The notes beneath the pieces are model-generated. The model saw nothing but the letters and a program-made list of their open reading frames with translations, was not told the origin of the DNA and did no database searches. From Piscicoccus intestinalis (GTDB lineage: Bacteria > Actinomycetota > Actinomycetes > Actinomycetales > Dermatophilaceae), in NCBI GenBank assembly GCA_039812445.1, contig JBDIAM010000037.1:1-16878 (forward strand): a stretch of DNA of 16,878 bases, given 5' to 3'. Made by a program: the position numbers and the translations under genes. Every line of letters begins with the position of its first letter. Positions within the stretch are counted from its first letter, which is position 1. Shown piece after piece: positions 1-14,974 of the stretch.

Positions 1-878
1 CCGGAGCCGCCGTGGCCGTAGCAGTGCACGACGCGCCGCTCGCCGCTGATCTCCTCCTCGAGGCGCACGCTGGGCCGTCCGGGGCGCAGCCCGACGCGGT
101 GGGCGACGACCCGGGCGCGTTCGAGGCGCCACCCGAATGCGGGCACCATCCGCGCGCATCGGGCGACGATGGCCCGTGCCACGGCCGGGTCAGGCATCGT
201 TCCCCACACACTGTCCTGTGCGGTTCCGCCGAGCACGATCGTCTCCGAGCGCGGGATCGCGTAGGCGAGTTCGGAGTCGTCGACCCACCACTGCTCGAGG
301 CCGACCTGCTCGACGACGACGACCTGCCCGCGGATCGGCGTCATCGACGGGTCCCGGGCCAGCCCGAGCGCCCCGAGGCCCGAGCAGTTGACGACCGTGA
401 CCCCCTCGGGCCGCGGCAGGTGCGGCAGCGCCATCCGGGTCAGCGTGCCGCCGAGCTCGTGCAGCCGTCGGGTGAGCCAGTCGAGGTAGACCGGCATCTC
501 GATGACCGGCACCCGCAGGCTCCACCCGCCGGCGTACCCGTCGGGCACCCGTTCGGCCTCCCGGAACGTGGGGACCGCGCCGGCCCACTCCGGTCGCGGA
601 GACCGTTCGCGCAGCAGCTCGACGCCCCAGCGGGAGACGACCCCGGTCGCGGGGTCGGCGGCGAGCTCCTCGAAGACGGCCAGGGAGGCGGCGCCCCACG
701 CGTCGACCTGCTCGCGCGGGTAGGCGAGGTAGGGGTACCACAGCGCGGCCGCGACGGCCGAGGTCGTCTCCTGAGGCAGCTCGCGGGCGATGACGTCGAC
801 CCGATGCCCGGCCTGAAGGAGCCGGATCGCGCAGCTCAGGCCGATGACACCGGCTCCGACGACGATGACCCGACCCAT
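1..878 (-). CDS. D-amino-acid oxidase family FAD-dependent oxidoreductase; 3' end runs off the window edge
   Basis: Minus-strand ATG at 878 gives MGRVIVVGAGVIGLSCAIRLLQAGHRVDVIARE (GxGxxG Rossmann N-terminus). The frame stays open to position 3 and ends ...VAHRVGLRPGRPSVRLEEEISGERRVVHCYGHGGSG, the hallmark HxYGHGGxG C-terminal motif of DAAO/DAO family. It is absent from the ORF track because no stop codon lies in the window. The plus ORF 12..1055 is its antisense shadow. Confidence 0.8.
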   Translation of the reverse strand, partial: MGRVIVVGAGVIGLSCAIRLLQAGHRVDVIARELPQETTSAVAAALWYPYLAYPREQVDAWGAASLAVFEELAADPATGVVSRWGVELLRERSPRPEWAGAVPTFREAERVPDGYAGGWSLRVPVIEMPVYLDWLTRRLHELGGTLTRMALPHLPRPEGVTVVNCSGLGALGLARDPSMTPIRGQVVVVEQVGLEQWWVDDSELAYAIPRSETIVLGGTAQDSVWGTMPDPAVARAIVARCARMVPAFGWRLERARVVAHRVGLRPGRPSVRLEEEISGERRVVHCYGHGGS

Positions 879-994
879 GCTCGCACTCCCGACTTCGGCG
901 CCCGCGCTCGTCGGTCGTGCCGCGCATCGGCCCGTGCCCGCGCGAGTCGCATTGCGAACACCCTATCGACGCCACGCCCTCCCTCCTGCGAAAG

Positions 995-1032
995 TCGAAC
1001 ACTCGAACGGTCATTAGCACTGGCGTTCGAAC
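995..1032. promoter_or_regulatory. TCGAAC direct repeat plus inverted repeat (TCGAACG-N14-CGTTCGA) in the divergent DAAO/alkB promoter region
   Basis: TCGAAC at 995-1000 and 1003-1008. Inverted repeat tcgaacg (1003-1009) / cgttcga (1024-1030), overlapping the self-complementary GTTCGAAC at 1025-1032, 1 bp before the alkB ATG at 1034. Confidence 0.35.
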
Positions 1033-1033
1033 C

Positions 1034-1678
1034 ATGGGCTATCGTGGCCGCATGACCGGTTTCCAGGGCTCGCTGCTCGACGTCACCGACGAGCTGTGCC
1101 TGCACGGGCTCGGCCCGGCGGTGCGGCGCACCGAACTGAGCGACGGCGCGTGGGTCGACGTGCGCCCCGGCTGGGTCGGCGGCGCCGACGAGGTGTTCGC
1201 GCTCATGCGCGACCGCGTCGACTGGCAGGCCGAGCGCCGCCGCATGTACGACCGGGTGCTCGACGTGCCCCGGCTCGTGCGCTTCTACGGCGCTCGTGAG
1301 ACGCTGCCGCACCCGCTGCTCGACGACGCCCGGGCCGCGCTGAGCGAGCACTACGCCGCCGAGCTCGGCGAACCGTTCGCGACCGCGGGCCTGTGCTACT
1401 ACCGCGACGGCCGCGACTCGGTCGCCTGGCACGGCGACCGCATCGGGCGCGGCCGCACCGACGACACGATGGTCGCCATCGTGTCGGTCGGCACGCCGCG
1501 CCCCCTGCTGCTGCGGCCCGCCTCCGGCGGCCGTTCGCTGCGCTTCCAGCTGGGCCACGGCGACCTGCTCGTCATGGGCGGCTCGTGCCAACGCACGTGG
1601 GAGCACTGCGTGCCGAAGGTCGACGCCTCGACCGGCCCCCGCATCAGCATCCAGTTCCGCCCCCGCGACGTGCGCTGA
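1034..1678 (+). CDS. alkB: AlkB-family 2-oxoglutarate/Fe(II)-dependent dioxygenase (oxidative DNA/RNA alkylation repair)
   Basis: WHGD (HxD iron ligands), LGHGDLLVMGGSCQRTWEHCVP (distal His) and RISIQFR (2OG-binding Arg) align to E. coli AlkB HQDKDE / LEHGDVVVWGGESRLFYHGI / RYNLTFR. Alternative start ATG 1052 (MTGFQGSLLD). No obvious SD, so possibly leaderless. Confidence 0.85.
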   Translation: MGYRGRMTGFQGSLLDVTDELCLHGLGPAVRRTELSDGAWVDVRPGWVGGADEVFALMRDRVDWQAERRRMYDRVLDVPRLVRFYGARETLPHPLLDDARAALSEHYAAELGEPFATAGLCYYRDGRDSVAWHGDRIGRGRTDDTMVAIVSVGTPRPLLLRPASGGRSLRFQLGHGDLLVMGGSCQRTWEHCVPKVDASTGPRISIQFRPRDVR

Positions 1679-2832: not shown

Positions 2833-3083
2833 GCGTGGCTCCTGTGGTTCGTCGGCCGGCGAGCGACCGGTCAGGAGACCGGTTTCGGCCTCCATGACCT
2901 CGGAGCGCGCTCGAACGCCCGTGATACCCCGTGATGGACGGACCCGCCCACGCCCGCCTCACGTCGCCGGCCGGCGAAGGCACGGCGAAGGCAGGTCGCG
3001 GGGACAGGAGACCAACGTCCCGCGCTGGACGGGCTGCTCCCAAACGCCAGCGGGAGCGGGAGACGGGCTGGAAGACTGCGCGC

Positions 3084-4862
3084 ATGGCGCGCGAATTCGA
3101 AAAAGTAGCTGTGGTAGGGGTCGGCACGATCGGCGCGGGCATCGTCGAGATCTTCGCCCGGTCGGGCCGCGACGTCATCGCGGTCGCTCTCAACGACGAG
3201 AAGGCCGAGCGCGGAAAGTACCTGCTGGAGCGCTCGACCCAGGCCGCAGTCGACGGCGACAAGATGGCGGCCGCCGACCGCGAGGCAACGCTGAGCCGGG
3301 TCACCATCACCACCGACATCACGCAGGTGGCGCAGGCCGACCTCGTCATCGAGGCGGTCAGCGAGACCATCGAGGCCAAGCGCAAGGTCGTCGGCCAGCT
3401 CGAGGTGATCATCTCCGACGACGCGGTGCTCGCGACGAACACCTCCAGCCACTCGGTCACCGACATCGCCGCGGCCATGCAGTTGCCGGGCCGCGTCATC
3501 GGCACGCACTTCTTCCCGCCGATCCCGGTCATGCGGCTCGTGGAGATCGTGCGCACCGTGATGACGGATCCGCCGGTCATCGACGAGGTCGTCGAACTCA
3601 TGCGCTCCCTCGACAAGGACCCGATCGTCGTCGAGGATCGCGCCGGATACATCGCCGACGCGCTCGTGCTCGGCTACCTCAACCACGCCGTCGAGATGTA
3701 CGAGGCGAAGTACGCCACCCGCGAGGACATCGATGCCGCGATGAAGCTCGGCTGCGGCCTGCCCCGCGGCCCGCTGGAGCTGCTCGACCTCATCGGCCTG
3801 GACACCGCCTACTCGGTGCTCGACACCATGCACAAGGCGAGCGGCAACCCGCTGCACGCACCCCGGCCGATCCTCAAGCAGATGGTCACCGCGGGCCTGC
3901 TCGGGCGCAAGAGCGGGCGCGGCTTCTACAGCTACGAGCAGCCCGACTCCGCCAAGGTCGTGCCCGACAAGCTGACGCCGTCGGCCGAGGTCTCCGGGGA
4001 GAACACCCGCACGATCGAGAAGGTCGGGGTCGTCGGCAACGGCACGATGGCCATGGGCATCGTCGAGGTCTTCGCCAAGGCCGGCTACCCCGTGACGTTC
4101 GTCGCCCGTTCGCAGGAGAAGGCGGACCGCTCGCTCGGCAAGCTCACCGCCTCCCTCGACAAGGCCGTGGGCCGCGGCAAGATGACGCAGGAGGGCCGCG
4201 ACGCCGCGCTCGGCCTGGTCACTGCGGCCTCCGCGCTGACCGACCTGGGTGACGTCGACATCGTCGTGGAGGCGATCGCCGAGGACCTCGCCGTCAAGCA
4301 GGACACGTTCGCCCGGCTCGACGAGATCTGCAAGCCCGGCGCGATCCTGGCCACGACGACCTCCTCGCTGCCGGTCATCAAGTGCGCGGTCGCCACGTCG
4401 CGTCCGCAGGACGTCATCGGCATGCACTTCTTCAACCCGGCCCAGGTCATGAAGCTCGTCGAGGTCGTCTCGACGGTCTCCACGGCCGACGACGTCACCG
4501 CCACCGTCGCGCAGCTGTGCGCGAGCATCAAGAAGCACCCGGTGTTCTGCGCCGACGTCTCCGGCTTCATCGTCAACGCCCTGTTGTTCCCCTACCTCAA
4601 CGACGCGGTGACGATGCTGGCCTCGCAGTACGCCACGATCGACGAGATCGACCTGGCGATGAAGGCCGGCTGCGGCTACCCGATGGGCCCGTTCGAGCTG
4701 CTCGACGTCGTCGGGCTCGACGTGTCGCTGGCGATCCAGCAGGAGCTGTTCACCGAGTTCCGCCAGCCCGCGTTCGCGCCCGCGCCGCTGCTGGAGTACC
4801 TCGTGCAGGCCGGTTTCCTCGGCCGCAAGACCGGCCGCGGGTTCCACAACTACGCGCGCTGA
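3084..4862 (+). CDS. Tandem-duplicated 3-hydroxyacyl-CoA (3-hydroxybutyryl-CoA) dehydrogenase, two complete HADH units fused
   Basis: Two N-terminal Rossmann starts (KVAVVGVGTIGAGI at residue ~8 and KVGVVGNGTMAMGI at ~306). Each is followed by NTSS/TTSS and HFF(N/P)P...VMKLVEVV motifs and a C-terminal dimerisation segment (GRKSGRGFYSY / GRKTGRGFHNY). RBS-like GGAAGA upstream of ATG 3084. Confidence 0.9.
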   Translation: MAREFEKVAVVGVGTIGAGIVEIFARSGRDVIAVALNDEKAERGKYLLERSTQAAVDGDKMAAADREATLSRVTITTDITQVAQADLVIEAVSETIEAKRKVVGQLEVIISDDAVLATNTSSHSVTDIAAAMQLPGRVIGTHFFPPIPVMRLVEIVRTVMTDPPVIDEVVELMRSLDKDPIVVEDRAGYIADALVLGYLNHAVEMYEAKYATREDIDAAMKLGCGLPRGPLELLDLIGLDTAYSVLDTMHKASGNPLHAPRPILKQMVTAGLLGRKSGRGFYSYEQPDSAKVVPDKLTPSAEVSGENTRTIEKVGVVGNGTMAMGIVEVFAKAGYPVTFVARSQEKADRSLGKLTASLDKAVGRGKMTQEGRDAALGLVTAASALTDLGDVDIVVEAIAEDLAVKQDTFARLDEICKPGAILATTTSSLPVIKCAVATSRPQDVIGMHFFNPAQVMKLVEVVSTVSTADDVTATVAQLCASIKKHPVFCADVSGFIVNALLFPYLNDAVTMLASQYATIDEIDLAMKAGCGYPMGPFELLDVVGLDVSLAIQQELFTEFRQPAFAPAPLLEYLVQAGFLGRKTGRGFHNYAR

Positions 4863-4928: not shown

Positions 4929-6788
<1,860 letters not shown>

Positions 6789-7177: not shown

Positions 7178-8248
7178 TCAGGTGTAGAGGCTGCCGGTGT
7201 TGACGACCGGGGTGGCCCGCTGCTCGCCGCACAGCACGACGAGCAGGTTGCTGACCATCGCCGCGCGGCGCTCCTCGTCGAGGGCCACGACCGAATCGGC
7301 CTCCAGGCGCTGCAGGGCGTCTTCGACCATGCCGACCGCGCCGTCGACGATGCGGGCGCGGGCCGCGACGATCGCGCCGGCCTGCTGGCGCTGCAGCATC
7401 GCCTGGGCGATCTCCGGGGCGTAGGCCAGGTGGGCGATGCGCACCTCGATGACCTCGACACCGGCGATGATGACGCGCTCGGCCACCTCGTGCGCCAGCT
7501 CCGCGCTGACCAGATCGGTGCTGCCCCGCAGCGACGTGGCGCCGCCCTCGTAGTCGTCGTAGGGGTGCGTCGTCGCGACGTGCCGCAGCGCCGCCTCCGC
7601 CTGCACGTGCACGAAGTCGCTGTAGTCCTCGACCGCGAACCGCGCCTTGGCTGTATCAGCCACCTGCCACACGACGATCGCGCCGATCTCGACCGGGTTG
7701 CCGTGCGCGTCGTTGACCTTGACGACACTCGTCTCGAAGTTGTGCACCCGCACGGAGACGGTGGGCTTGGTCGTCAGCGGCATCACCATCGTCAGGCCCT
7801 CGCGCCGGTTCGTGCCGACGTACTGCCCGAAGAACTGCAGCACCTTCGTCTGCCCCGGCTGCACGATCGTCACCGAGCTGAGCACGAGCACCGCGGCGAC
7901 GAACAGCACCCCGGCCCCGATCAGCGCGCCCAGGCCGCCGGTGCCGGCGTTGAGCGCGAATCCCCCGATGACCGCCAGGTAGACCGCCACCCCCAGCAGC
8001 ACGACCCCGACGAGCAACGCGAGGAAGCCGTTGACCGCCCAGGCCCGGCGCTCGGTGACGTCGACCCGCGCGCCCGAGTGCCCCACCGGCGTCGCCTGCG
8101 GCGGCACCTCCTGCGGGCCCTCCGAGACCACGCCCTCGGCCGTGGCGCCGCGTGACTCTCGCACCCCCTGCTCCCGTGCTTCCGGGGCCTCCCGTGCCTC
8201 CCGTGCCTCGGCGGGCACCGAACCGTCTCGTCGCCCCTGCTCGTCCAT
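7178..8248 (-). CDS. SPFH / band-7 (stomatin-prohibitin-flotillin-HflK/C family) membrane protein
   Basis: Start ATG 8248 preceded by GGGGAG 7 nt upstream. N-terminal acidic [14 protein letters not shown] repeat, two predicted TM helices ([23 protein letters not shown]; [21 protein letters not shown]), then SPFH core ([18 protein letters not shown]...[24 protein letters not shown]). The ORF-track start at 8395 reads through the promoter region and is probably spurious. Confidence 0.85.
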
Positions 8249-8281
8249 CACAACTCCCCTCTCGTCGGCCAGCTCGGCCCC

Positions 8282-8302
8282 CTGATATCTAAGTGATATC
8301 AG
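8282..8302. promoter_or_regulatory. Perfect palindrome CTGATATC-TAAGT-GATATCAG in an AT-rich island; candidate operator over the SPFH promoter
   Basis: 8-bp arms with a 5-bp spacer in a locally AT-rich patch, unusual for this genome. Minus-strand ATAAAT -10-like hexamer (8308-8303) immediately abuts it, about 50 nt upstream of SPFH ATG 8248. It lies about 60 bp from the divergent M4 promoter element. Confidence 0.45.
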
Positions 8303-8363
8303 ATTTATGACGTGGTCGCGAGCGCGTCGGTTCCGCTCGGGCGCGGATTGTTGAACTCGAACC

Positions 8364-8386
8364 TTGTCGGTGGTCGGTGCTTCAAT
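8364..8386 (+). promoter_or_regulatory. RecA-NDp-like (PafBC-type DNA-damage) promoter element TTGTCGGTG-N8-TTCAAT, placed for a leaderless M4-nei transcript
   Basis: TTGTCGGTG (8364-8372) perfectly matches the tTGTCRgtg -35-like element of the mycobacterial/actinobacterial RecA-independent promoter. After 8 nt comes TTCAAT (8381-8386) versus consensus TAnnnT, one mismatch at position 2. The ATG at 8394 lies 7 nt after the hexamer with no SD, so the transcript would be leaderless. Confidence 0.35.
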
Positions 8387-8393
8387 CGTTGAC

Positions 8394-9827
8394 ATGACGA
8401 ATCACCGTGAACTTCACGACATCTCGCGCGGGGCCGCGCAGTGCACGGTGGTCCCGCCGTTCCTGCTGCAGCGCCTGGCGCGCTCCGGAGACGGGCCGGC
8501 CGCCACCGTGGCCCGCGACACCCTGCGTCTGGAGCACACGCTGCGGGTGCGGCGCGAGGCGCGCTCGATGCGCCAGCCACGATCGACGGGCGGCCCCGTG
8601 CCGGGTCGGGAGCCCGCCGCCGGCGGCGAGCCGCAGAACGAGCGCGTCGACGAGCCGGTCGAGGGGCCGCTCGAGGGGCGAGGCGACGAGCGGGGCGATG
8701 CTCGAGGCGGTGACGCCCGCGACGGGAGCGGGGAACCGGGGCCGCCCGGTCAGGGGTTCGTGCCCGACCGGCTGCAGCGCCACCCCAGGCTCCGGGAGCA
8801 TCGTCGCGTCGAACCGCCGCGCGGGCTGGCGCCCGGCGAGCCGCCACAGGAGGCGGTGACCGCGACCCCCGACCGGGCGGTCCACGACGCCGAGCACGGC
8901 ACCGATCTGCCCGGCGTGCTGCGCCGCGACGAGGGCGCCGAGCCGCACGCCGACGAGTCCGTCAACGAGGCCTACGACGGGCTCGGCCACACGTGGTCGC
9001 TGTTCCACGACGCGTACGGGCGCAACTCCCTCGACGACGCCGGGCTCAAGCTCGTCGCGTCCGTGCACTTCGCGAAGGACTACGACAACGCGTTCTGGGA
9101 CGGCGAACAGATGGTCTTCGGCGACGGCGACGGCGAGGTGTTCGGCTCGTTCACCGACTGCCTCGACGTCATCGGCCACGAGCTCGCGCACGGGTTCACC
9201 CAGTACACGGCGGGATTCGTCTATGTCGGGCAGTCCGGGGCGCTCAACGAGCACGTCTCCGACGTGTTCGGCGTGCTCACCGTGCAGCGCGTCGAGGGGC
9301 AGATCGCCGACCAGGCCGACTGGCTCGTCGGCAAGGACCTGTTCCTGCCGGGCGTGCAGGGCGTCGCGCTGCGGTCGATGAAGGCGCCCGGCACCGCGTA
9401 CGACGACCCGCGCCTGGGCAAAGACCCGCAGCCCGCGCACATGGACGACTACGAACAGCTGCCGCACGACGAGGCCAACGACAACGGCGGGGTGCACATC
9501 AACTCCGGCATCCCCAACCACGCCTTCTACCTGGCCGCCACCACCCTCGGCGGCAACGCCTGGGAGGCCCCCGGCCAGATCTGGTACGACGTCATGACCA
9601 CCGGCGGCCTGCCCAAAGACGCCGACTTCGCGGCCTTCGCCGCCGCCACCCTCGCGGCCGCCGGCGCCCGTTACGGCGAGGGCAGCGCCGAGCAGGAGGC
9701 GGTCCGGGCGGGCTGGGACGGAGTCGGTGTGGTCGCCGCCGCCTCCCCCGTGCACCTGACCCGGCCCCGGCCCGACGCGCGGGCGGCCGCCCGGGGGCCG
9801 CGGCGCCTGCCCGATGCCCGAAGGTGA
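8394..9827 (+). CDS. Protealysin-like thermolysin-family (M4) zinc metalloprotease, intracellular type with short PPL-motif propeptide
   Basis: HExxH plus downstream Glu (VIGHELAHGFTQYTAGFVYVGQSGALNEHVSDVFG). Other M4 blocks: DNAFWDGEQMVFGDGDG, GGVHINSGIPNHAFY, C-terminal VRAGWDGVGV. No signal peptide. N-terminal CTVVPPFLLQRL resembles the conserved PPL motif of protealysin-like propeptides. An Asp/Glu/Gly/Arg low-complexity linker of roughly 60 residues (PAAGGEPQNERVDEPVEGPLEGRGDERGDARGGDARDGSGEP) sits between propeptide and catalytic domain. Stop overlaps nei start by 14 nt. Confidence 0.9.
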   Translation: MTNHRELHDISRGAAQCTVVPPFLLQRLARSGDGPAATVARDTLRLEHTLRVRREARSMRQPRSTGGPVPGREPAAGGEPQNERVDEPVEGPLEGRGDERGDARGGDARDGSGEPGPPGQGFVPDRLQRHPRLREHRRVEPPRGLAPGEPPQEAVTATPDRAVHDAEHGTDLPGVLRRDEGAEPHADESVNEAYDGLGHTWSLFHDAYGRNSLDDAGLKLVASVHFAKDYDNAFWDGEQMVFGDGDGEVFGSFTDCLDVIGHELAHGFTQYTAGFVYVGQSGALNEHVSDVFGVLTVQRVEGQIADQADWLVGKDLFLPGVQGVALRSMKAPGTAYDDPRLGKDPQPAHMDDYEQLPHDEANDNGGVHINSGIPNHAFYLAATTLGGNAWEAPGQIWYDVMTTGGLPKDADFAAFAAATLAAAGARYGEGSAEQEAVRAGWDGVGVVAAASPVHLTRPRPDARAAARGPRRLPDARR

Positions 9828-10755
9828 CACCGTCGCGTGGACCGCGGCCCGGCTCCAGGCCGCCCTCGGCGGCGCGACCCTGACCCGGGCCGAGTTGCGC
9901 TGGCCGTCGCTCGCGGGAGCCGACCTCGTGGGGGCCAGGACCGTGCGGGTGGTCGCGCGCGGCAAGCACCTGCTGCACCGCCTCGACCTGCGCGGCCAGG
10001 CCCTCACCCTGCACTCGCACCTGCGGATGGACGGCACGTGGCGGGTGCGACCCGCACAGGAGAGTGTGCGGTGGGACCATCGGCTGCGCGCCGTGCTCGG
10101 CACCGCCGACGCGACCGCGCTGGGGCGCAGCCTCGGCATGCTCGACCTCGTCGCCACCGCCGACGAGGATCGGCTCGTCGGCCATCTCGGGCCCGACATC
10201 CTCGCCCGTGCCTGGCAGGCGGGCGAACCGCCCGGGCGCGACATCGCGATGCGCCGGCTGTCACGAGACGACCGGCCGCTCGCGGAGGCGCTGCTCGATC
10301 AACGGGTGCTGGCCGGGCTCGGCACCTTCTGGGTCAGCGAGGGCTGCTTCGCGGAGCGGCTGAACCCGTGGCGGACCGCCGCGCAGGTGCCGACCGACGA
10401 CGTGGCGGCGCTCCTGGACTGGGCCCGGCCACGGATGCTGCGGTCGGCCCGCACCGGCGCGCAGTCGGTCACCGGGCTCGCCCGCCGCGACGCCCTGGGG
10501 GCCGTGCACGCGCTCTCGGGGCGTCCGTGCCGCCGCTGCGGACGCCCCGTTCGGGTCGCGCTCGTCGGCGCGGCCCCGCGAGAGCGCACGATCTTCTACT
10601 GCCCGGCCTGCCAGGGCGGGATCGCGCCCACCGACGACGGCCGGCCGCAGGCACCCCTGGGGGCCACGGGATCCACTCGTCGCTCCGGTGGCGACGACGG
10701 TCCCGGCAGGGCTCAGGTGTACAGGGGCCGGTCCGGGTCGGCGGGCTCGTCCTGA
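9814..10755 (+). CDS. nei: Fpg/Nei-family DNA glycosylase, endonuclease VIII-like (Nei)
   Basis: Starts MPEGDTV (catalytic Pro2/Glu3). GKHLLHRLD...LTLHSHLRMDGTWRV, LGPDIL, LLDQRVLAGLGTFWVSEGCF and a C-terminal C4 zinc finger (CRRCGRPV...FYCPACQ) align along E. coli Nei. The low-complexity C-terminal tail of about 40 aa overlaps the convergent gene by 43 nt. Confidence 0.85.
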   Translation: MPEGDTVAWTAARLQAALGGATLTRAELRWPSLAGADLVGARTVRVVARGKHLLHRLDLRGQALTLHSHLRMDGTWRVRPAQESVRWDHRLRAVLGTADATALGRSLGMLDLVATADEDRLVGHLGPDILARAWQAGEPPGRDIAMRRLSRDDRPLAEALLDQRVLAGLGTFWVSEGCFAERLNPWRTAAQVPTDDVAALLDWARPRMLRSARTGAQSVTGLARRDALGAVHALSGRPCRRCGRPVRVALVGAAPRERTIFYCPACQGGIAPTDDGRPQAPLGATGSTRRSGGDDGPGRAQVYRGRSGSAGSS

Positions 10756-11225
10756 CGCGCCGAACTCTCGCCGCCGTCGGGCGCGACGTCCTCGCCGTAC
10801 AGCACCTGACCGTCCTCGGCGACGACGACGAGCGTCTCCGCGCCGCCGTCGACGATCTTGTCCGCGATGAGGGCCGCCTCCGGCTCCGGAACCCGCACCC
10901 CGGCGCGTTCCCAGCCCCGCGTCAGTTCCTCGAGGATGTCCGAGGGGGCCCGGCCGGCCGCGCCCCCGGCCACCGCCGCCAACGTGTCGACGTAGGCCCG
11001 CACCCCTTCCGGCCCGACCTCGTCCGCGAAGCCGGAGTTCACCGTGATGCGCGACGTGCGGGTCGTCTCCTCGTTCCCCCGCCGGCCCGCCAGGTCCGGG
11101 TTGTTGATGTCGACCTCGGCGGTGTCACTGGAATGGACCTTGTGATCGTCCTGCCGATCGGCGTGCCGAACCTCGTGCCGATCGTCCCGTCGATCGTCGT
11201 GACGGCCATCTGCGGCGGTGCTCAT
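10713..11225 (-). CDS. Hypothetical protein with His/Asp/Arg-rich disordered N-terminus and conserved-looking C-terminal domain
   Basis: ATG 11225 preceded by AGGAGA 6 nt upstream. 170 aa: MSTAADGRHDDRRDDRHEVRHADRQDDHKVHSSDTAEVDINNPD... then ...GVRAYVDTLAAVAGG...ILEELTRGWERAGVRVPEPEAALIADKIVDGGAETLVVVAEDGQVLYGE. Strong GC3 bias. The ORF-track start at 11870 is an upstream read-through. Family not recognised. Confidence 0.6.
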   Translation of the reverse strand: MSTAADGRHDDRRDDRHEVRHADRQDDHKVHSSDTAEVDINNPDLAGRRGNEETTRTSRITVNSGFADEVGPEGVRAYVDTLAAVAGGAAGRAPSDILEELTRGWERAGVRVPEPEAALIADKIVDGGAETLVVVAEDGQVLYGEDVAPDGGESSARQDEPADPDRPLYT

Positions 11226-11403
11226 ATCAGTCTCCTGGTCAGGCGGGAAACGGTCTGCGAAACGCCCGCCATCACTCGACGAGCACGGCGCGGCGCGCTC
11301 TGTCGGCGGGTCGACCCGAGTACATCTACCCGTTGCGGCCGAACGCAATCCCGGCGCCGGCAGCGGGTCCTGCCTAGGGTAGGGGCGCCGACCGGCCACC
11401 CGC

Positions 11404-11436
11404 CACGAAAGAGGCACGAAAGAGGCACGAGAGAGG
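11404..11436 (+). repeat. Three tandem copies of an 11-bp SD-containing unit (CACGAAAGAGG x2, CACGAGAGAGG) immediately upstream of the photolyase ATG
   Basis: Direct reading: cacgaaagagg cacgaaagagg cacgagagagg accgccgag ATG. Each unit carries an AAGAGG/AGAGG Shine-Dalgarno-like core. The third copy sits 9 nt before ATG 11446. Confidence 0.8.
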
Positions 11437-11445
11437 ACCGCCGAG

Positions 11446-12813
11446 ATGAGCACGATCCTGTGGCTGCGCCGGGACCTGCGCCGCGACGACCTGCCGGCGC
11501 TGGTCGCCGCGCACGAGGCGGCGGGCGACGGCCGGGTGCTGCCGGTGTTCGTGCTCGACCCGAGGCTGTGGAACGGCGCGGGCGAGGCGCGCCGCGCGGC
11601 GCTGCGAGACGCCCTGCAGCGCGCCCAGGAGGAGTACGACGGCGCGCTCGTCGCGCGTCGCGGCGACCCCGCGCAGGTGCTGGCGCACCTCGCGACCCAG
11701 ACCGGCGCCACCAGCGTGCACGTCAGCGGCGAATCGACCCCCTTCGGCCGCCGCCGCGGGGAGGCCGTGCACGCAGCCCTCGCCGCCTTGCCCGGAGGCG
11801 GGGTGCCGGTGGTCGCGACCGGCACCCCGTACGCCGTCTCCCCCGGCCGCATCCGCACCCAGGCCGGCACGCCCTACCAGGTGTTCACCCCGTTCGCGCG
11901 GGCCTGGCGCGCCCACGGCCACCCCGGCCCGGCGCGGCCGCCCGCGGCCGTGCGGTGGCTCACCGGCGTCCCCAGCGACGACCTGCCCGGCACGGCCGAC
12001 GCGTCACCGGCTCCCGGCCCGGACCCCCGGCAGGCGTGGCGTGACTTTCTCGACGAGGGACTCGGCGACTACGACACCGCCCGCGACCGCCCCGATCTCG
12101 ACGCCACCTCGCGGGTCTCCGAGCACCTGAAGTTCGGGGCGCTGCACCCGCGCACTCTGCTCGCCGACGTCGCCGCGCACCCCGCGGCCGGGAGCACCGC
12201 GGCCCGCCGGTTCGTCGACCAGCTCATCTGGCGCGAGTTCTACGCCGACGTGCTGTGGCACCGCCCCGAATCCGCCTGGCACGACCTGCGCCCGCTCGGC
12301 GACATCGGCACCGACCCCGACGCCGACGAGCAGACCGCGCACCGCTGGGACGCCTGGTGCGCCGGCCGCACCGGCTACCCCTACGTCGACGCCGGGATGC
12401 GCCAACTGCTCGCGCAGGGCTGGATGCACAACCGGCTGCGCATGGTCACTGCCTCCTTCCTCGTCAAGGACCTGCACATCCGCTGGCAGCACGGCGCCCG
12501 GTTCTTCCTCGCGCACCTGCGCGACGGCGATCTCGCCTCGAACAACCACGGCTGGCAGTGGGCGGCCGGCACCGGCACCGACGCCGCGCCCTACGTGCGG
12601 GTCTTCAACCCGATCACCCAGGGGAGGCGGTTCGACCCCGGCGGCGACTACGTGCGCCGCCACGTGCCCGAACTCGCGCACGTCGCCGGGGCCGCCGCCC
12701 ACGAGCCGTGGAACGCCCCCGACGGGTACACCCACGGATACCCGCAGCGGATCGTCGACCACGCGGCCGAGCGCCGCGAGGCCCTGCGTCGCTTCCACGA
12801 GGTGTCGCCCTGA
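11446..12813 (+). CDS. phrB: Deoxyribodipyrimidine photolyase (class I CPD photolyase/cryptochrome family)
   Basis: 455 aa. N-terminal photolyase alpha/beta domain (ILWLRRDLRRDDLPAL) and FAD-binding domain with WREFY, GYPYVDAGMRQLLAQGWMHNRLRMVTASFLVKDL and NNHGWQWAAGTGTDAAPYVRVFNP signature blocks. Confidence 0.95.
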   Translation: MSTILWLRRDLRRDDLPALVAAHEAAGDGRVLPVFVLDPRLWNGAGEARRAALRDALQRAQEEYDGALVARRGDPAQVLAHLATQTGATSVHVSGESTPFGRRRGEAVHAALAALPGGGVPVVATGTPYAVSPGRIRTQAGTPYQVFTPFARAWRAHGHPGPARPPAAVRWLTGVPSDDLPGTADASPAPGPDPRQAWRDFLDEGLGDYDTARDRPDLDATSRVSEHLKFGALHPRTLLADVAAHPAAGSTAARRFVDQLIWREFYADVLWHRPESAWHDLRPLGDIGTDPDADEQTAHRWDAWCAGRTGYPYVDAGMRQLLAQGWMHNRLRMVTASFLVKDLHIRWQHGARFFLAHLRDGDLASNNHGWQWAAGTGTDAAPYVRVFNPITQGRRFDPGGDYVRRHVPELAHVAGAAAHEPWNAPDGYTHGYPQRIVDHAAERREALRRFHEVSP

Positions 12814-12950: not shown

Positions 12951-14255
12951 ATGGACACCGACGTCGTCATCGCCGGAGCCGGGCTCGCCGGCCTGACCTG
13001 CGCCCGGCACCTCGCGGGAGCCGGGCTCGACGTGCGCGTCCTCGAGGCGGGCGACGACGTCGGCGGCCGCGTGCGCACCGACGTCGTCGACGGCTTCCGC
13101 TGCGACCGCGGGTTCCAGCTGCTCAACCCCGCCTACCCCGCCGTGCGCGACGAGGTCGACGTGCGCCGGCTCGGGCTCGGCACGTTCGAGCGCGGCGTCG
13201 CGGTGCGCCGCGACGACGGTCTGACGCACCTGACCGTCAGCCCGCGGGCGCTGGCCCACGCGGCGCCCGCGACCGTCTCCTCGATCACCTCCCTCGTGCC
13301 GGGCCCCTACCTGCGCCCGCAGTCGGTGCGCGAGCTCGCCGCGCTGACGCGGTGGGCGGCGCCGGCGCTGGGCCCGGTCTCGCGGCTGCTGCGGCAACGG
13401 GACACGACGCTGCGCGAGAGCTGGGACGACGCCGGGTTCCGCGGCCGCTTCCGCGCCGAGGTCGTCGAGCCCTTCCTCGCCGGGGTCGTGCTCGAGCGGG
13501 ACGGCTCGACGTCGGCCAATTTCGCCCGACTGCTCGTGCGCGCCTTCGCGCTGGGCACCCCGGGGGTGCCCGCCCAGGGCATGTCCGCGCTGCCGCACCA
13601 GCTCGCGGCGCCGGTCCTTGAGTCGGTGGAGTTGGGCCGGCGCGTCGAGGCCGTCACCCGCGAGACCGGCGGGGTGCGCGTCGACACCGACTCCGGGCCG
13701 GTGCGGGCGCGGGCGGCGGTCGTCGCGTGCGACCCGGCGACCGCCGGCGAACTGCTCGACATCGAGGTGCCGGCCGGCCGGGGCCTGACGACGTGGTGGT
13801 TCGCGACCGACTCCGACCCCGGCGACCGGGCGATCCTGCATCTCGACGGCCGCTCGCAGCCCGGGCCGCTGGTCAACGCGGCGGTGATGACCAACGCCGC
13901 CCCGTCGTACGCCCCACCCGGATGGCACCTCGTGCAGGCCAGCGCCCTGACCGCCGACGCCGACCTGCCGACCGAGGCGGTGCTCGCGCAGGTCGGTGCG
14001 GTGCTCGGCGTGCCGACCCGGTCGTGGCAGCTGGTGACCCGCCACGACATCGCCTACGCCCTGCCGAGCCAGCCGCCGCCGCTGCGGGTGCGCCGCGACG
14101 TCGCCCTCGGCGGGGGCGTCTACGCGTGCGGCGACCACCGCGACACCGCCTCCATCCAGGGCGCGATCGTCTCCGGACGGCGCACGGCGCGCGCGGTGGC
14201 GCGTCGCCTGGCCCCGGCGGCCCCGGCTGACTCAGCGGCCCGCGGCCGAGCATGA
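12951..14255 (+). CDS. NAD(P)/FAD-dependent oxidoreductase of the flavin amine-oxidase superfamily (protoporphyrinogen-oxidase / phytoene-desaturase-like)
   Basis: AGGAGGA RBS then MDTDVVIAGAGLAGLTCARHLAGAGLDVRVLEAGDDVGGRVRT (dinucleotide-binding GxGxxG...E...GGR). C-terminal VYACGDHRDTASIQGAIVSGRRTA is the second FAD-contact motif typical of the amine oxidase/PPO/CrtI fold. 434 aa. Stop overlaps the next start (ATGA). Confidence 0.8.
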   Translation: MDTDVVIAGAGLAGLTCARHLAGAGLDVRVLEAGDDVGGRVRTDVVDGFRCDRGFQLLNPAYPAVRDEVDVRRLGLGTFERGVAVRRDDGLTHLTVSPRALAHAAPATVSSITSLVPGPYLRPQSVRELAALTRWAAPALGPVSRLLRQRDTTLRESWDDAGFRGRFRAEVVEPFLAGVVLERDGSTSANFARLLVRAFALGTPGVPAQGMSALPHQLAAPVLESVELGRRVEAVTRETGGVRVDTDSGPVRARAAVVACDPATAGELLDIEVPAGRGLTTWWFATDSDPGDRAILHLDGRSQPGPLVNAAVMTNAAPSYAPPGWHLVQASALTADADLPTEAVLAQVGAVLGVPTRSWQLVTRHDIAYALPSQPPPLRVRRDVALGGGVYACGDHRDTASIQGAIVSGRRTARAVARRLAPAAPADSAARGRA

Positions 14256-14974
14256 TCAATCCGGTCACCGAGCTGCGGGCCTTCGTCACGGCGGCCCTGT
14301 TCTCCCCCGTTCCGCGCGATCACGCCCAGACCGACGCGGCGTTCCGGCGCCGCCGGGTCGTGGCTGCCGCCACCCTCGTCGTCGGCGGCGTGTTGCTCTT
14401 CGTGAGCCTGCGGGTGCCGCCGGGTGACCCGGCGTTCTACGCCTGGACGCTGGCCCTCGCCGCCGTGTGGACCGTCGGCGCGTTCGCCTCCGGGCCGCTG
14501 CATCTGGGCCAGGCCTGGACCCGCACCGGGGCCGTCGCGCGGCCCGTCGTGCAGTCCGCGGCGCTCGCGGCCCTGCTCGTCGCGCTCTTCCTCGTCGGTG
14601 CCGTCGTCGTCGCGGGCGTCCCCGTGCTGCGCGGCCCCGTCGACGGGCTCCTCGACCACGCCCGGTTCGGGTCGCTGCCGGTCGTCGCGGTCGTCACCGC
14701 GGTCAACGGCATCGGCGAGGAGTTGTACTTCCGCGGCGTCCTCTTCGCCGCGATCGGCCGTCGACACGCGGTCGCGGTCTCGACCGTGCTGTATATGCTC
14801 GTCACGCTCGCCAGCGGGGTGCCGCTGCTCGTGCTCGCGGCCGGCGTGCTCGGCGTCGTCACCGGCCTGCAACGCCGCGTCACCGGCGGCGTGCTCGGCC
14901 CGATCCTCGTGCACGTCGCGTGGTCGATGTCGATGCTCTTCCTGCTTCCTCCCGTTCTCGACACCCTGAGGTGA
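14252..14974 (+). CDS. CPBP-family intramembrane metalloprotease (CAAX protease/Abi-like) membrane protein
   Basis: Multiple TM helices. Motif 1 EELYFRG (EExxxR) and a downstream ILVHVAWS histidine motif. Translationally coupled on both sides (ATGA at 14252; TGA-AC-ATG at 14972-14979). Confidence 0.7.
   Translation: MINPVTELRAFVTAALFSPVPRDHAQTDAAFRRRRVVAAATLVVGGVLLFVSLRVPPGDPAFYAWTLALAAVWTVGAFASGPLHLGQAWTRTGAVARPVVQSAALAALLVALFLVGAVVVAGVPVLRGPVDGLLDHARFGSLPVVAVVTAVNGIGEELYFRGVLFAAIGRRHAVAVSTVLYMLVTLASGVPLLVLAAGVLGVVTGLQRRVTGGVLGPILVHVAWSMSMLFLLPPVLDTLR

Follow-up and report, generated by a model that had tools for sequence, protein, structure and literature searches.

A protease gene and a DNA repair gene share a reading overlap in a 16,878-nt stretch of Piscicoccus intestinalis DNA, the whole of which is referred to here as the window. 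The first gene encodes an M4 metalloprotease of the protealysin-like protease (PLP) subgroup, and the second, nei2, encodes a DNA glycosylase of the Fpg/Nei family. We consider it likely, though well short of certain from sequence comparison, that this locus is a damage-inducible, leaderless PLP-nei2 bicistron served by a single hybrid promoter of the PafBC type. This reading builds on the identities of the two genes, on their overlap, on the conservation of the promoter motif in related loci and on its co-occurrence with the promoters of lhr in relatives. PLPs are widespread and intracellular and have no agreed physiological role, and a damage-type promoter conserved on PLPs across an actinobacterial group is a concrete cue to the role of the family.

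Protease, glycosylase and their overlap

The open reading frame (ORF) at 8364-9827 has a G+C content at third codon positions of 0.92 and matches the Pfam models Peptidase_M4 (PF01447, E = 8.8e-26) and M4_C (PF02868, E = 8.9e-50), indicating a real gene. Its true start is ATG 8394 rather than 8364, since the equivalent methionine begins a 98% identical metagenomic protein (P0001) and the protein of Kineosphaera limosa (P0003), the nearest named relative (M4 identity, 68%), in alignment A1, and since the in-frame codons upstream are the promoter itself. The protein has the attributes of the PLP subgroup, namely, M4 catalytic and C-terminal domains, HExxH with a downstream glutamate, a short propeptide with a PPL motif, and no signal sequence. 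The propeptide motif VVPPFLL occupies residues 19 to 25 (8448-8468), with P21, P22 and L25 invariant in the alignment; HELAH (residues 262 to 266, 9177-9191) and the third zinc ligand, Glu286 in GALNEHVSD (9237-9263), are likewise invariant. Neither a hydrophobic N-terminus nor a signal peptide was found in the protein, and Pfam gave no FTP or PepSY propeptide domain. The PLN_propep model covers the expected residues at a subthreshold score (E = 0.002; 18.2 bits versus a cut-off of 28.1). An earlier reading of the DNA letters alone (the sequence-only reading) had described an M4 metalloprotease with a protealysin-type propeptide motif and no signal peptide, and VVPPFLL, HELAH with Glu286, and the nonhydrophobic N-terminus bear out that description.

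Two further stretches of the protease vary among relatives. A low-complexity linker of ~100 amino acids, rich in Gly, Pro, Arg and Glu (window ~8560-8870), separates the PPL propeptide from the catalytic domain, and its length differs widely among orthologues, with 0 to ~45 extra residues. The basic C-terminal tail (window ~9735-9824) holds a [KR]AAAR-like motif that recurs in relatives lacking the inhibitor emfourin, with or without nei2 behind the protease gene (P0002-P0004, P0007 and P0009). Because the motif is independent of the presence of nei2, the tail is not simply read-through of former intergenic DNA.

The downstream protein carries Pro2-Glu3, Lys51 in RGKHL, the H2TH motif and a zinc finger (CRRC at residue 239 to CPAC at 263, 10528-10611), together with matches to PF01149 and PF06831. 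Its best match among solved structures is Mycobacterium smegmatis Nei2 (8tjg, E = 2.9e-44), with the next best at 1.5e-16 and other Fpg/Nei proteins at ~1e-16 or worse. The NCBIfam Nei2 model is also the best of its kind, at 196 bits versus 90 for Nei, a score that lies under the 400-bit equivalog cut-off. Judged by these matches, the glycosylase is of the Nei2 type, and its relation to Nei, Nei1 and Fpg is more distant. The usual operon neighbour of nei2, lhr, was not found in the window.

The catalytic proline of Fpg/Nei enzymes must be residue 2, and ATG 9814 (MPEGDTV) is therefore the only possible start of nei2. A mis-called start, which the sequence-only reading had listed as a possible cause of the overlap, is ruled out for the same reason. 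The overlap is exactly the 14 nt claimed (ATGCCCGAAGGTGA), from ATG 9814 to the protease stop codon TGA 9825-9827, and suggests translational coupling of the two genes. A generic scan of 8100-11500 found no terminator and no sigma-70-type promoter; as the scan demands an A at hexamer position 2, it is blind to a promoter such as TTCAAT and shows little beyond the lack of a -35/-10 pair.

A PafBC-type promoter element and its conservation

The in vivo PafBC motif is tGTCgg(N10)tA(N3)T, with a GTC triplet that is almost absolutely conserved across Actinobacteria and with no -35 element (PMC8635444). Directly before the protease gene, TTGTCGGTG-N8-TTCAAT (8364-8386) has one mismatch to TTGTCRGTG-N8-TANNNT; a one-mismatch motif is expected by chance 0.01 times per window, and 3 of 200 shuffles reach one match. 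The core TGTCGG and the hexamer are separated by a 10-nt spacer, TGGTCGGTGC, which fits PafBC spacing. The hexamer ends 7 nt 5' of ATG 8394, Shine-Dalgarno sequence is absent, and no -35 element is recognisable in the 8100-11500 scan, as in PafBC promoters. The heptamer GTCGGTG is duplicated in tandem, from the upstream element into the spacer, and K. limosa (L081) has the very same duplication, with degenerate versions in L084 and L082; we know of no counterpart in PafBC promoters. An ECF (extracytoplasmic function) or SigH-type -10 at CGTT 8387 was rejected by eye, with no GGAAY at the right distance. Among alternative -10 registers, no TAnnnT occurs at N9 to N12 in the window, and L086 and L091 allow TACCTT at N11.

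The footprint [T]GTCGG-N10-hexamer-N6-9-ATG was present in all 18 PLP loci of Dermatophilaceae, Intrasporangiaceae and relatives in a scan anchored on the PPL motif, with the start codon in frame and the spacer fixed at 10 nt. These loci are the window, L081, L082, L084, L086-L089, L091, L001-L006, L010, L021 and L066, and they include Mobilicoccus (L001), Janibacter (L003), Knoellia (L004 and L021), Arsenicicoccus (L005) and Serinicoccus (L010). GTCG is kept in 18/18, the next G in 17/18 and the last T of the hexamer in 18/18; the 10-nt spacer and the 6 to 9 nt before the ATG vary. The same test found the pattern in none of 69 other PLP loci, which are mostly from Streptomyces, with others from Kitasatospora, Actinomadura, Kribbella, an Arthrobacter and two proteobacteria. 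Upstream of the protease gene lies the SPFH gene in some loci and leuA in others, indicating that the promoter element travels with the protease gene. The promoter appears to be ancestral to the protease and is present in many genomes without an adjacent nei2. A stricter scan (TGTCRGTG-N8-TnnnnT) had pointed to only four close relatives, an artefact of requiring T at the first hexamer position.

We calibrated the motif on PafBC targets in related genomes. The mycobacterial lhr-nei2 operon is PafBC-induced by mitomycin C, UV and ciprofloxacin (PMC11323726). The corresponding lhr promoters read TGTCGG-N10-CAGGCT-9-ATG (L090), TGTCGG-N10-CATCGT-9-ATG (L092), TGTCGG-N10-GAGGCT-9-ATG (L093, Knoellia aerolata) and TGTCAG-N10-GAGGCT-9-ATG (L094, K. 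koreensis), and that of K. limosa nei2 reads TGTCGG-N11-TACGCT-6-ATG. The genomes of both Knoellia species also gave PLP loci (L004 and L021), each with the motif, so that the protease and lhr promoters of the same genomes belong to the same sequence class. The resemblance to a PafBC-dependent promoter claimed by the sequence-only reading is thus present as described, is kept throughout the related PLP loci and matches the lhr promoters of relatives.

Similar elements were seen at other genes. TTGTCGG-N10-CACAAT-6/7-GTG stands before recO in L089 (~1622-1590, minus strand) and L091 (~1007-975, minus strand), which implies that translation begins without a leader, a few codons inside the annotated gene; recO of L081, L087 and L088 shows no recognisable element of this kind. 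Two Streptomyces loci, L014 (~9444, minus strand) and L073 (~12323, minus strand), have textbook RecA-NDp sites, TTGTCAGTG-N8-TAGGCT and TTGTCGGTG-N8-TACGCT, respectively. These precede phoH-ybeY-corC, ~5.3 kb from the PLP-emfourin pair, and no such site precedes the Streptomyces PLP.

The mismatch in the -10 hexamer is real and is common to the window's subclade, whose hexamers are TTCAAT, TTGAAT, TTACCT or TTGCAT; Janibacter L003 also has TTCAAT. A regular nAnnnT hexamer occurs in 9 of the 18 loci (9 of the 10 outside the TTnnnT group). A TGn stands directly before all TTnnnT hexamers but that of L003, seven of the eight, and thus before all those of the window's subclade; just 2 of the 10 remaining PLP promoters have one. 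An extended -10 of this kind can compensate for a poor hexamer in sigma-70-type promoters.

Proposed mechanism, gene history and alternatives

By analogy with described PafBC promoters, PafBC activated by single-stranded DNA would bind TGTCGG at about -26 and adapt the housekeeping SigA RNA polymerase to a promoter without a -35 element (PMC8635444, PMC11804915). The weak -10 (TGcTTCAAT, with T for A at -11) would keep basal expression low. Spacing and the lack of a Shine-Dalgarno sequence suggest that transcription starts at ~8393/8394, giving a leaderless bicistronic mRNA from which the protease would be made as a cytoplasmic zymogen with its PPL propeptide and Nei2 by coupling across the 14-nt overlap. 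PafBC dependence, damage induction, the start of transcription and the function of the protease are what we infer from this arrangement.

Some points weigh against such a promoter. TTCAAT keeps the T at -7 but has T at -11, where the conserved A is the base that matters most for recognition by sigma. In the PafBC consensus this A is an upper-case, well-conserved position, lower case standing for 50% conservation or less (PMC8635444). Experimental validation of the motif comes from mycobacteria alone, and our calibration is confined to genes of related genomes; that the organism of the window encodes PafBC is presumed. It is conceivable, but in our view unlikely, that the GTCGG-N10-hexamer is a promoter or operator of the protease gene used by a factor other than PafBC (another activator at -26, a repressor or plain SigA) and that expression is unrelated to DNA damage. 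Beyond the departure at -11 throughout the window's subclade, this explanation can draw on other WYL activators that act at -26, such as SiwR (PMC10693628). However, the target of SiwR is a 19-bp palindrome that contains a GGA triplet instead of GTC (PMC10693628), and a SiwR-type site was rejected because the motif differs. In the same Knoellia genomes this GTCGG-N10 architecture also stands before lhr, for which PafBC control is best documented, a GTCGG architecture precedes K. limosa nei2, and half of the PLP promoters have the regular hexamer.

The recO/alkB-like/leuA/M4 neighbourhood is kept in relatives, and within it the position of nei2 varies. The two genes overlap by 14 nt in L086 (identical to the window) and L091 (by coordinates) and by 8 nt in L082/83; they are separated by 85 nt in L084/85 and by a 1.65-kb insert in K. 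limosa (L081), and nei2 is absent from L087, L088 and L089, whose M4 proteins are 57 to 67% identical. No nei was found within 6 kb of 80 further actinobacterial PLP genes, indicating that the pairing is not general. In other Dermatophilaceae and Intrasporangiaceae (L090, L092, L093 and L094) nei2 is in its canonical place after lhr, which marks the M4-nei2 pairing as derived and confined to one small clade. The comparison of synteny that the sequence-only reading had proposed as a check thus confines the pairing to the window's subclade. Its proposal that the two genes are cotranscribed gains support from the overlaps in L082, L086 and L091 and from the lack of a terminator or sigma-70-type promoter between the genes.

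These arrangements suggest a history in which the PLP genes of the group already stood behind the PafBC-type promoter class. Under the same class, nei2 would have left lhr and moved beside the protease gene with its own promoter, as the K. limosa arrangement suggests. Intergenic DNA would then have been lost in some lineages, a step consistent with the variable M4 C-terminal tails, whose stop codons fall at different points within the start of nei2. On this evidence the pair looks like two coregulated genes merged into a single unit. The K. limosa insert (L081 9285-10936) has a G+C content of 56 to 62%, versus ~70% around it, and contains two doubtful ORFs and one of 102 amino acids that matches no family; 2 kb farther on there is an IS110 transposase.

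Another explanation is that nei2 is expressed mainly from a promoter of its own toward the 3' end of the M4 coding sequence; the overlap would then be left over from intergenic deletion and would be no sign of obligatory coexpression. In K. limosa, nei2 has a PafBC-type promoter to itself, and in L084 a Shine-Dalgarno sequence as well as the 85-nt gap precedes nei2. We regard this explanation as doubtful for the window, where the 60 nt before ATG 9814 hold no GTC element, no suitably spaced -10-like hexamer and no Shine-Dalgarno sequence, and overlaps of 8 to 14 nt recur in three other lineages.

The sequence-only reading had also noted that an emfourin-type inhibitor gene is absent. A local emfourin hidden Markov model (HMM; E <= 1) had no match in any frame of the window, and the local HMM had none among six-frame ORFs at L081-L089, L091, L001, L005, L010 and L035. 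In the window's subclade, none was found by tblastn, nor by Pfam on the K. limosa ORFs downstream of M4. Among general PLP loci, emfourin adjoins the protease or is fused to it in frame in 72 of 80, as detected with an HMM built from emfourin segments. The protease and emfourin share one reading frame in L002, L003, L004, L006, L021 and L066, which come from Janibacter, two Knoellia species, a Dermatophilaceae metagenome-assembled genome (MAG), a Propionibacteriaceae MAG and an uncultured actinobacterium; the predicted product is a fusion of enzyme and inhibitor, as in P0116 and P0118. The damage-type promoter is still present at the fused-emfourin loci and is therefore independent of inhibitor status. 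It is very improbable that the protease is a damage-induced toxin for bacterial competition, like SOS-induced colicin-immunity operons, with emfourin as the immunity protein and the Nei2 link incidental: although Serratia workers have proposed PLP and emfourin as an effector-immunity pair (PMC9505478) and related loci on the same promoter have the fusion, the window's subclade has no emfourin at the locus, the protease has no signal peptide and no export gene nearby, and a toxin without immunity would harm its producer.

For the PafBC-type bicistron, the conserved promoter suggests that the PLP family belongs to the DNA damage response. Serratia protealysin, an intracellular enzyme, cuts RecA and the linker of FtsZ in vitro, and without its inhibitor it brings the UV survival of E. 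coli down ~ten-fold (PMC9505478); a damage-type promoter on PLPs fits both results. We propose, with low confidence, that the protease carries out damage-timed proteolysis of response or division proteins. In mycobacteria, RecA and other regulon members are removed after repair by the Pup-proteasome, whose genes some Actinobacteria no longer possess (PMC8223512); after mitomycin C, Nei2 reportedly undergoes pupylation (PMC11323726). A more far-reaching and quite speculative possibility is that the PLPs of these Actinobacteria are DNA damage response effectors. The PafBC-induced protease might then cleave response or division proteins (RecA or FtsZ, for example) or DNA-bound proteins, including covalently trapped Nei2 and other DNA-protein crosslinks, in a role filled elsewhere by the Pup-proteasome or, in eukaryotes, by SPRTN-type proteases, and the PLP-Nei2 operon might be a dedicated repair module.

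Surrounding features and comparison with known systems

The window has a G+C content of ~74%, and its gene order was derived from codon-position GC and Pfam (Table 1). Rfam and tRNA scans of the window gave no match.

Table 1. Positions of genes and promoter features in the window
Feature	Position	Strand	Basis or remark
FAD (flavin adenine dinucleotide) oxidoreductase	3-962	-	Codon-position GC, Pfam
AlkB-like 2OG (2-oxoglutarate) oxygenase	917-1678	+	Codon-position GC, Pfam
3-Hydroxyacyl-CoA dehydrogenase	2931-4862	+	Codon-position GC, Pfam
LeuA	4929-6719	-	Codon-position GC, Pfam
SPFH/Band-7 protein	7178-8248	-	Codon-position GC, Pfam
Divergent intergenic region, SPFH gene (minus)/M4 gene	8249-8393	.	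Holds the protease promoter and a separate conserved palindrome (8282-8302)
PafBC-type upstream (-26) element TTGTCGGTG, core TGTCGG 8365-8370	8364-8372	+	Match to tGTCgg consensus (PMC8635444)
Tandem heptamer GTCGGTG x2, -26 element into spacer	8366-8379	+	Sequence
Extended -10, TGc plus hexamer TTCAAT (8381-8386)	8378-8386	+	Hexamer exactly N10 after TGTCGG
Predicted transcription start, at ATG (8394-8396) or 1 nt before	8393-8396	+	Suggested by spacing and lack of Shine-Dalgarno sequence
Protealysin-like M4 metalloprotease, 477 aa	8394-9827	+	Codon-position GC, Pfam PF01447 and PF02868, alignment A1
Overlap of M4 stop region and nei2 start, 14 nt, ATGCCCGAAGGTGA	9814-9827	+	M4 stop TGA 9825-9827
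Nei2-type Fpg/Nei DNA glycosylase/AP (apurinic/apyrimidinic) lyase, 313 aa (nei2)	9814-10755	+	Codon-position GC, Pfam, structure match, NCBIfam Nei2
Conserved acidic ORF	10713-11225	-	Codon-position GC; no Pfam match
Photolyase	11446-12813	+	Codon-position GC, Pfam
Amine oxidase	12951-14255	+	Codon-position GC, Pfam
Rce1-like protease	14252-14974	+	Codon-position GC, Pfam

Other elements lie on either side of the two genes. A perfect inverted repeat, CTGATATC-N5-GATATCAG (8282-8302), lies ~35 nt 5' of the SPFH gene start (8248, minus strand) and is kept as GATAKCTAAGTGATAYCA in L084, L086 and L091 while its flanks diverge. This palindrome is probably an operator or promoter of the SPFH gene, distinct from the protease promoter. 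At 11404-11436, three tandem 11-nt units (CACGAAAGAGG twice, then CACGAGAGAGG) end 9 nt 5' of the photolyase start codon at 11446 and may be a regulatory or ribosome-binding repeat.

The gene directly downstream of nei2 throughout the window's clade encodes a conserved acidic protein of 130 to 170 amino acids (L082 10558-11022, L084 6701-7150, L086 7654-8169 and L091 9213-9614, in addition to the window). It is convergent with nei2, with a 43-nt overlap with the nei2 3' end in the window, and it has 12-nt periodic repeats in its 5' part (11144-11204). The C-terminus is conserved as SARQxEPxDPxRP[LV]Y[ST], and no Pfam or NCBIfam match was found for the protein.

The M4-nei2 operon and the clade-wide damage-type promoter of PLPs appear to be without a report in the literature searched. 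The sequence-only reading had called a protease and a repair enzyme under damage control an unusual pairing; this would hold for the protease but not for nei2, which is already known to be PafBC-induced in mycobacteria (PMC11323726). With this locus, the PafBC regulon, so far made up mainly of repair enzymes, gains a proteolytic candidate, and nei2 has switched its operon partner, apparently with its regulation kept. The TGnTTnnnT promoters offer natural -10 variants for the study of sigma adaptation. Should damage induction fail, the locus would be a compact operon with a look-alike motif.

Three known systems bear comparison with the locus. It resembles the mycobacterial lhr-nei2 operon, which serves the repair of inter-strand crosslinks, in its Nei2-type second gene and in a tGTCgg-N10 hybrid promoter near the start codon, and relatives keep lhr-nei2 with that promoter. 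Unlike in mycobacteria, an M4 protease replaces the Lhr helicase upstream, the genes overlap by 14 nt, and T stands at -11. With the protealysin-emfourin operon of Serratia proteamaculans the locus shares the M4 core, the short signal-less N-terminus with the PPL motif and the bicistronic layout. In that operon the downstream gene is small, whereas here emfourin is absent and a DNA repair gene lies downstream; the ~100-amino-acid low-complexity linker and the basic C-terminal tail also set this protease apart from Serratia protealysin. A damage-type promoter is present here, and none has been reported for protealysin in the literature searched. PafBC/RecA-NDp promoters, which work by sigma adaptation and serve recA and about 150 mycobacterial genes, share with the protease promoter the -26 element with its invariant GTC, the 10-nt spacing, the invariant T at -7 and the lack of a -35 element. 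In contrast to them, the promoter in the window has T for A at -11 and a TGn extended -10. The promoter class, the protease subgroup and the repair enzyme are each known, and it is their combination that is new.

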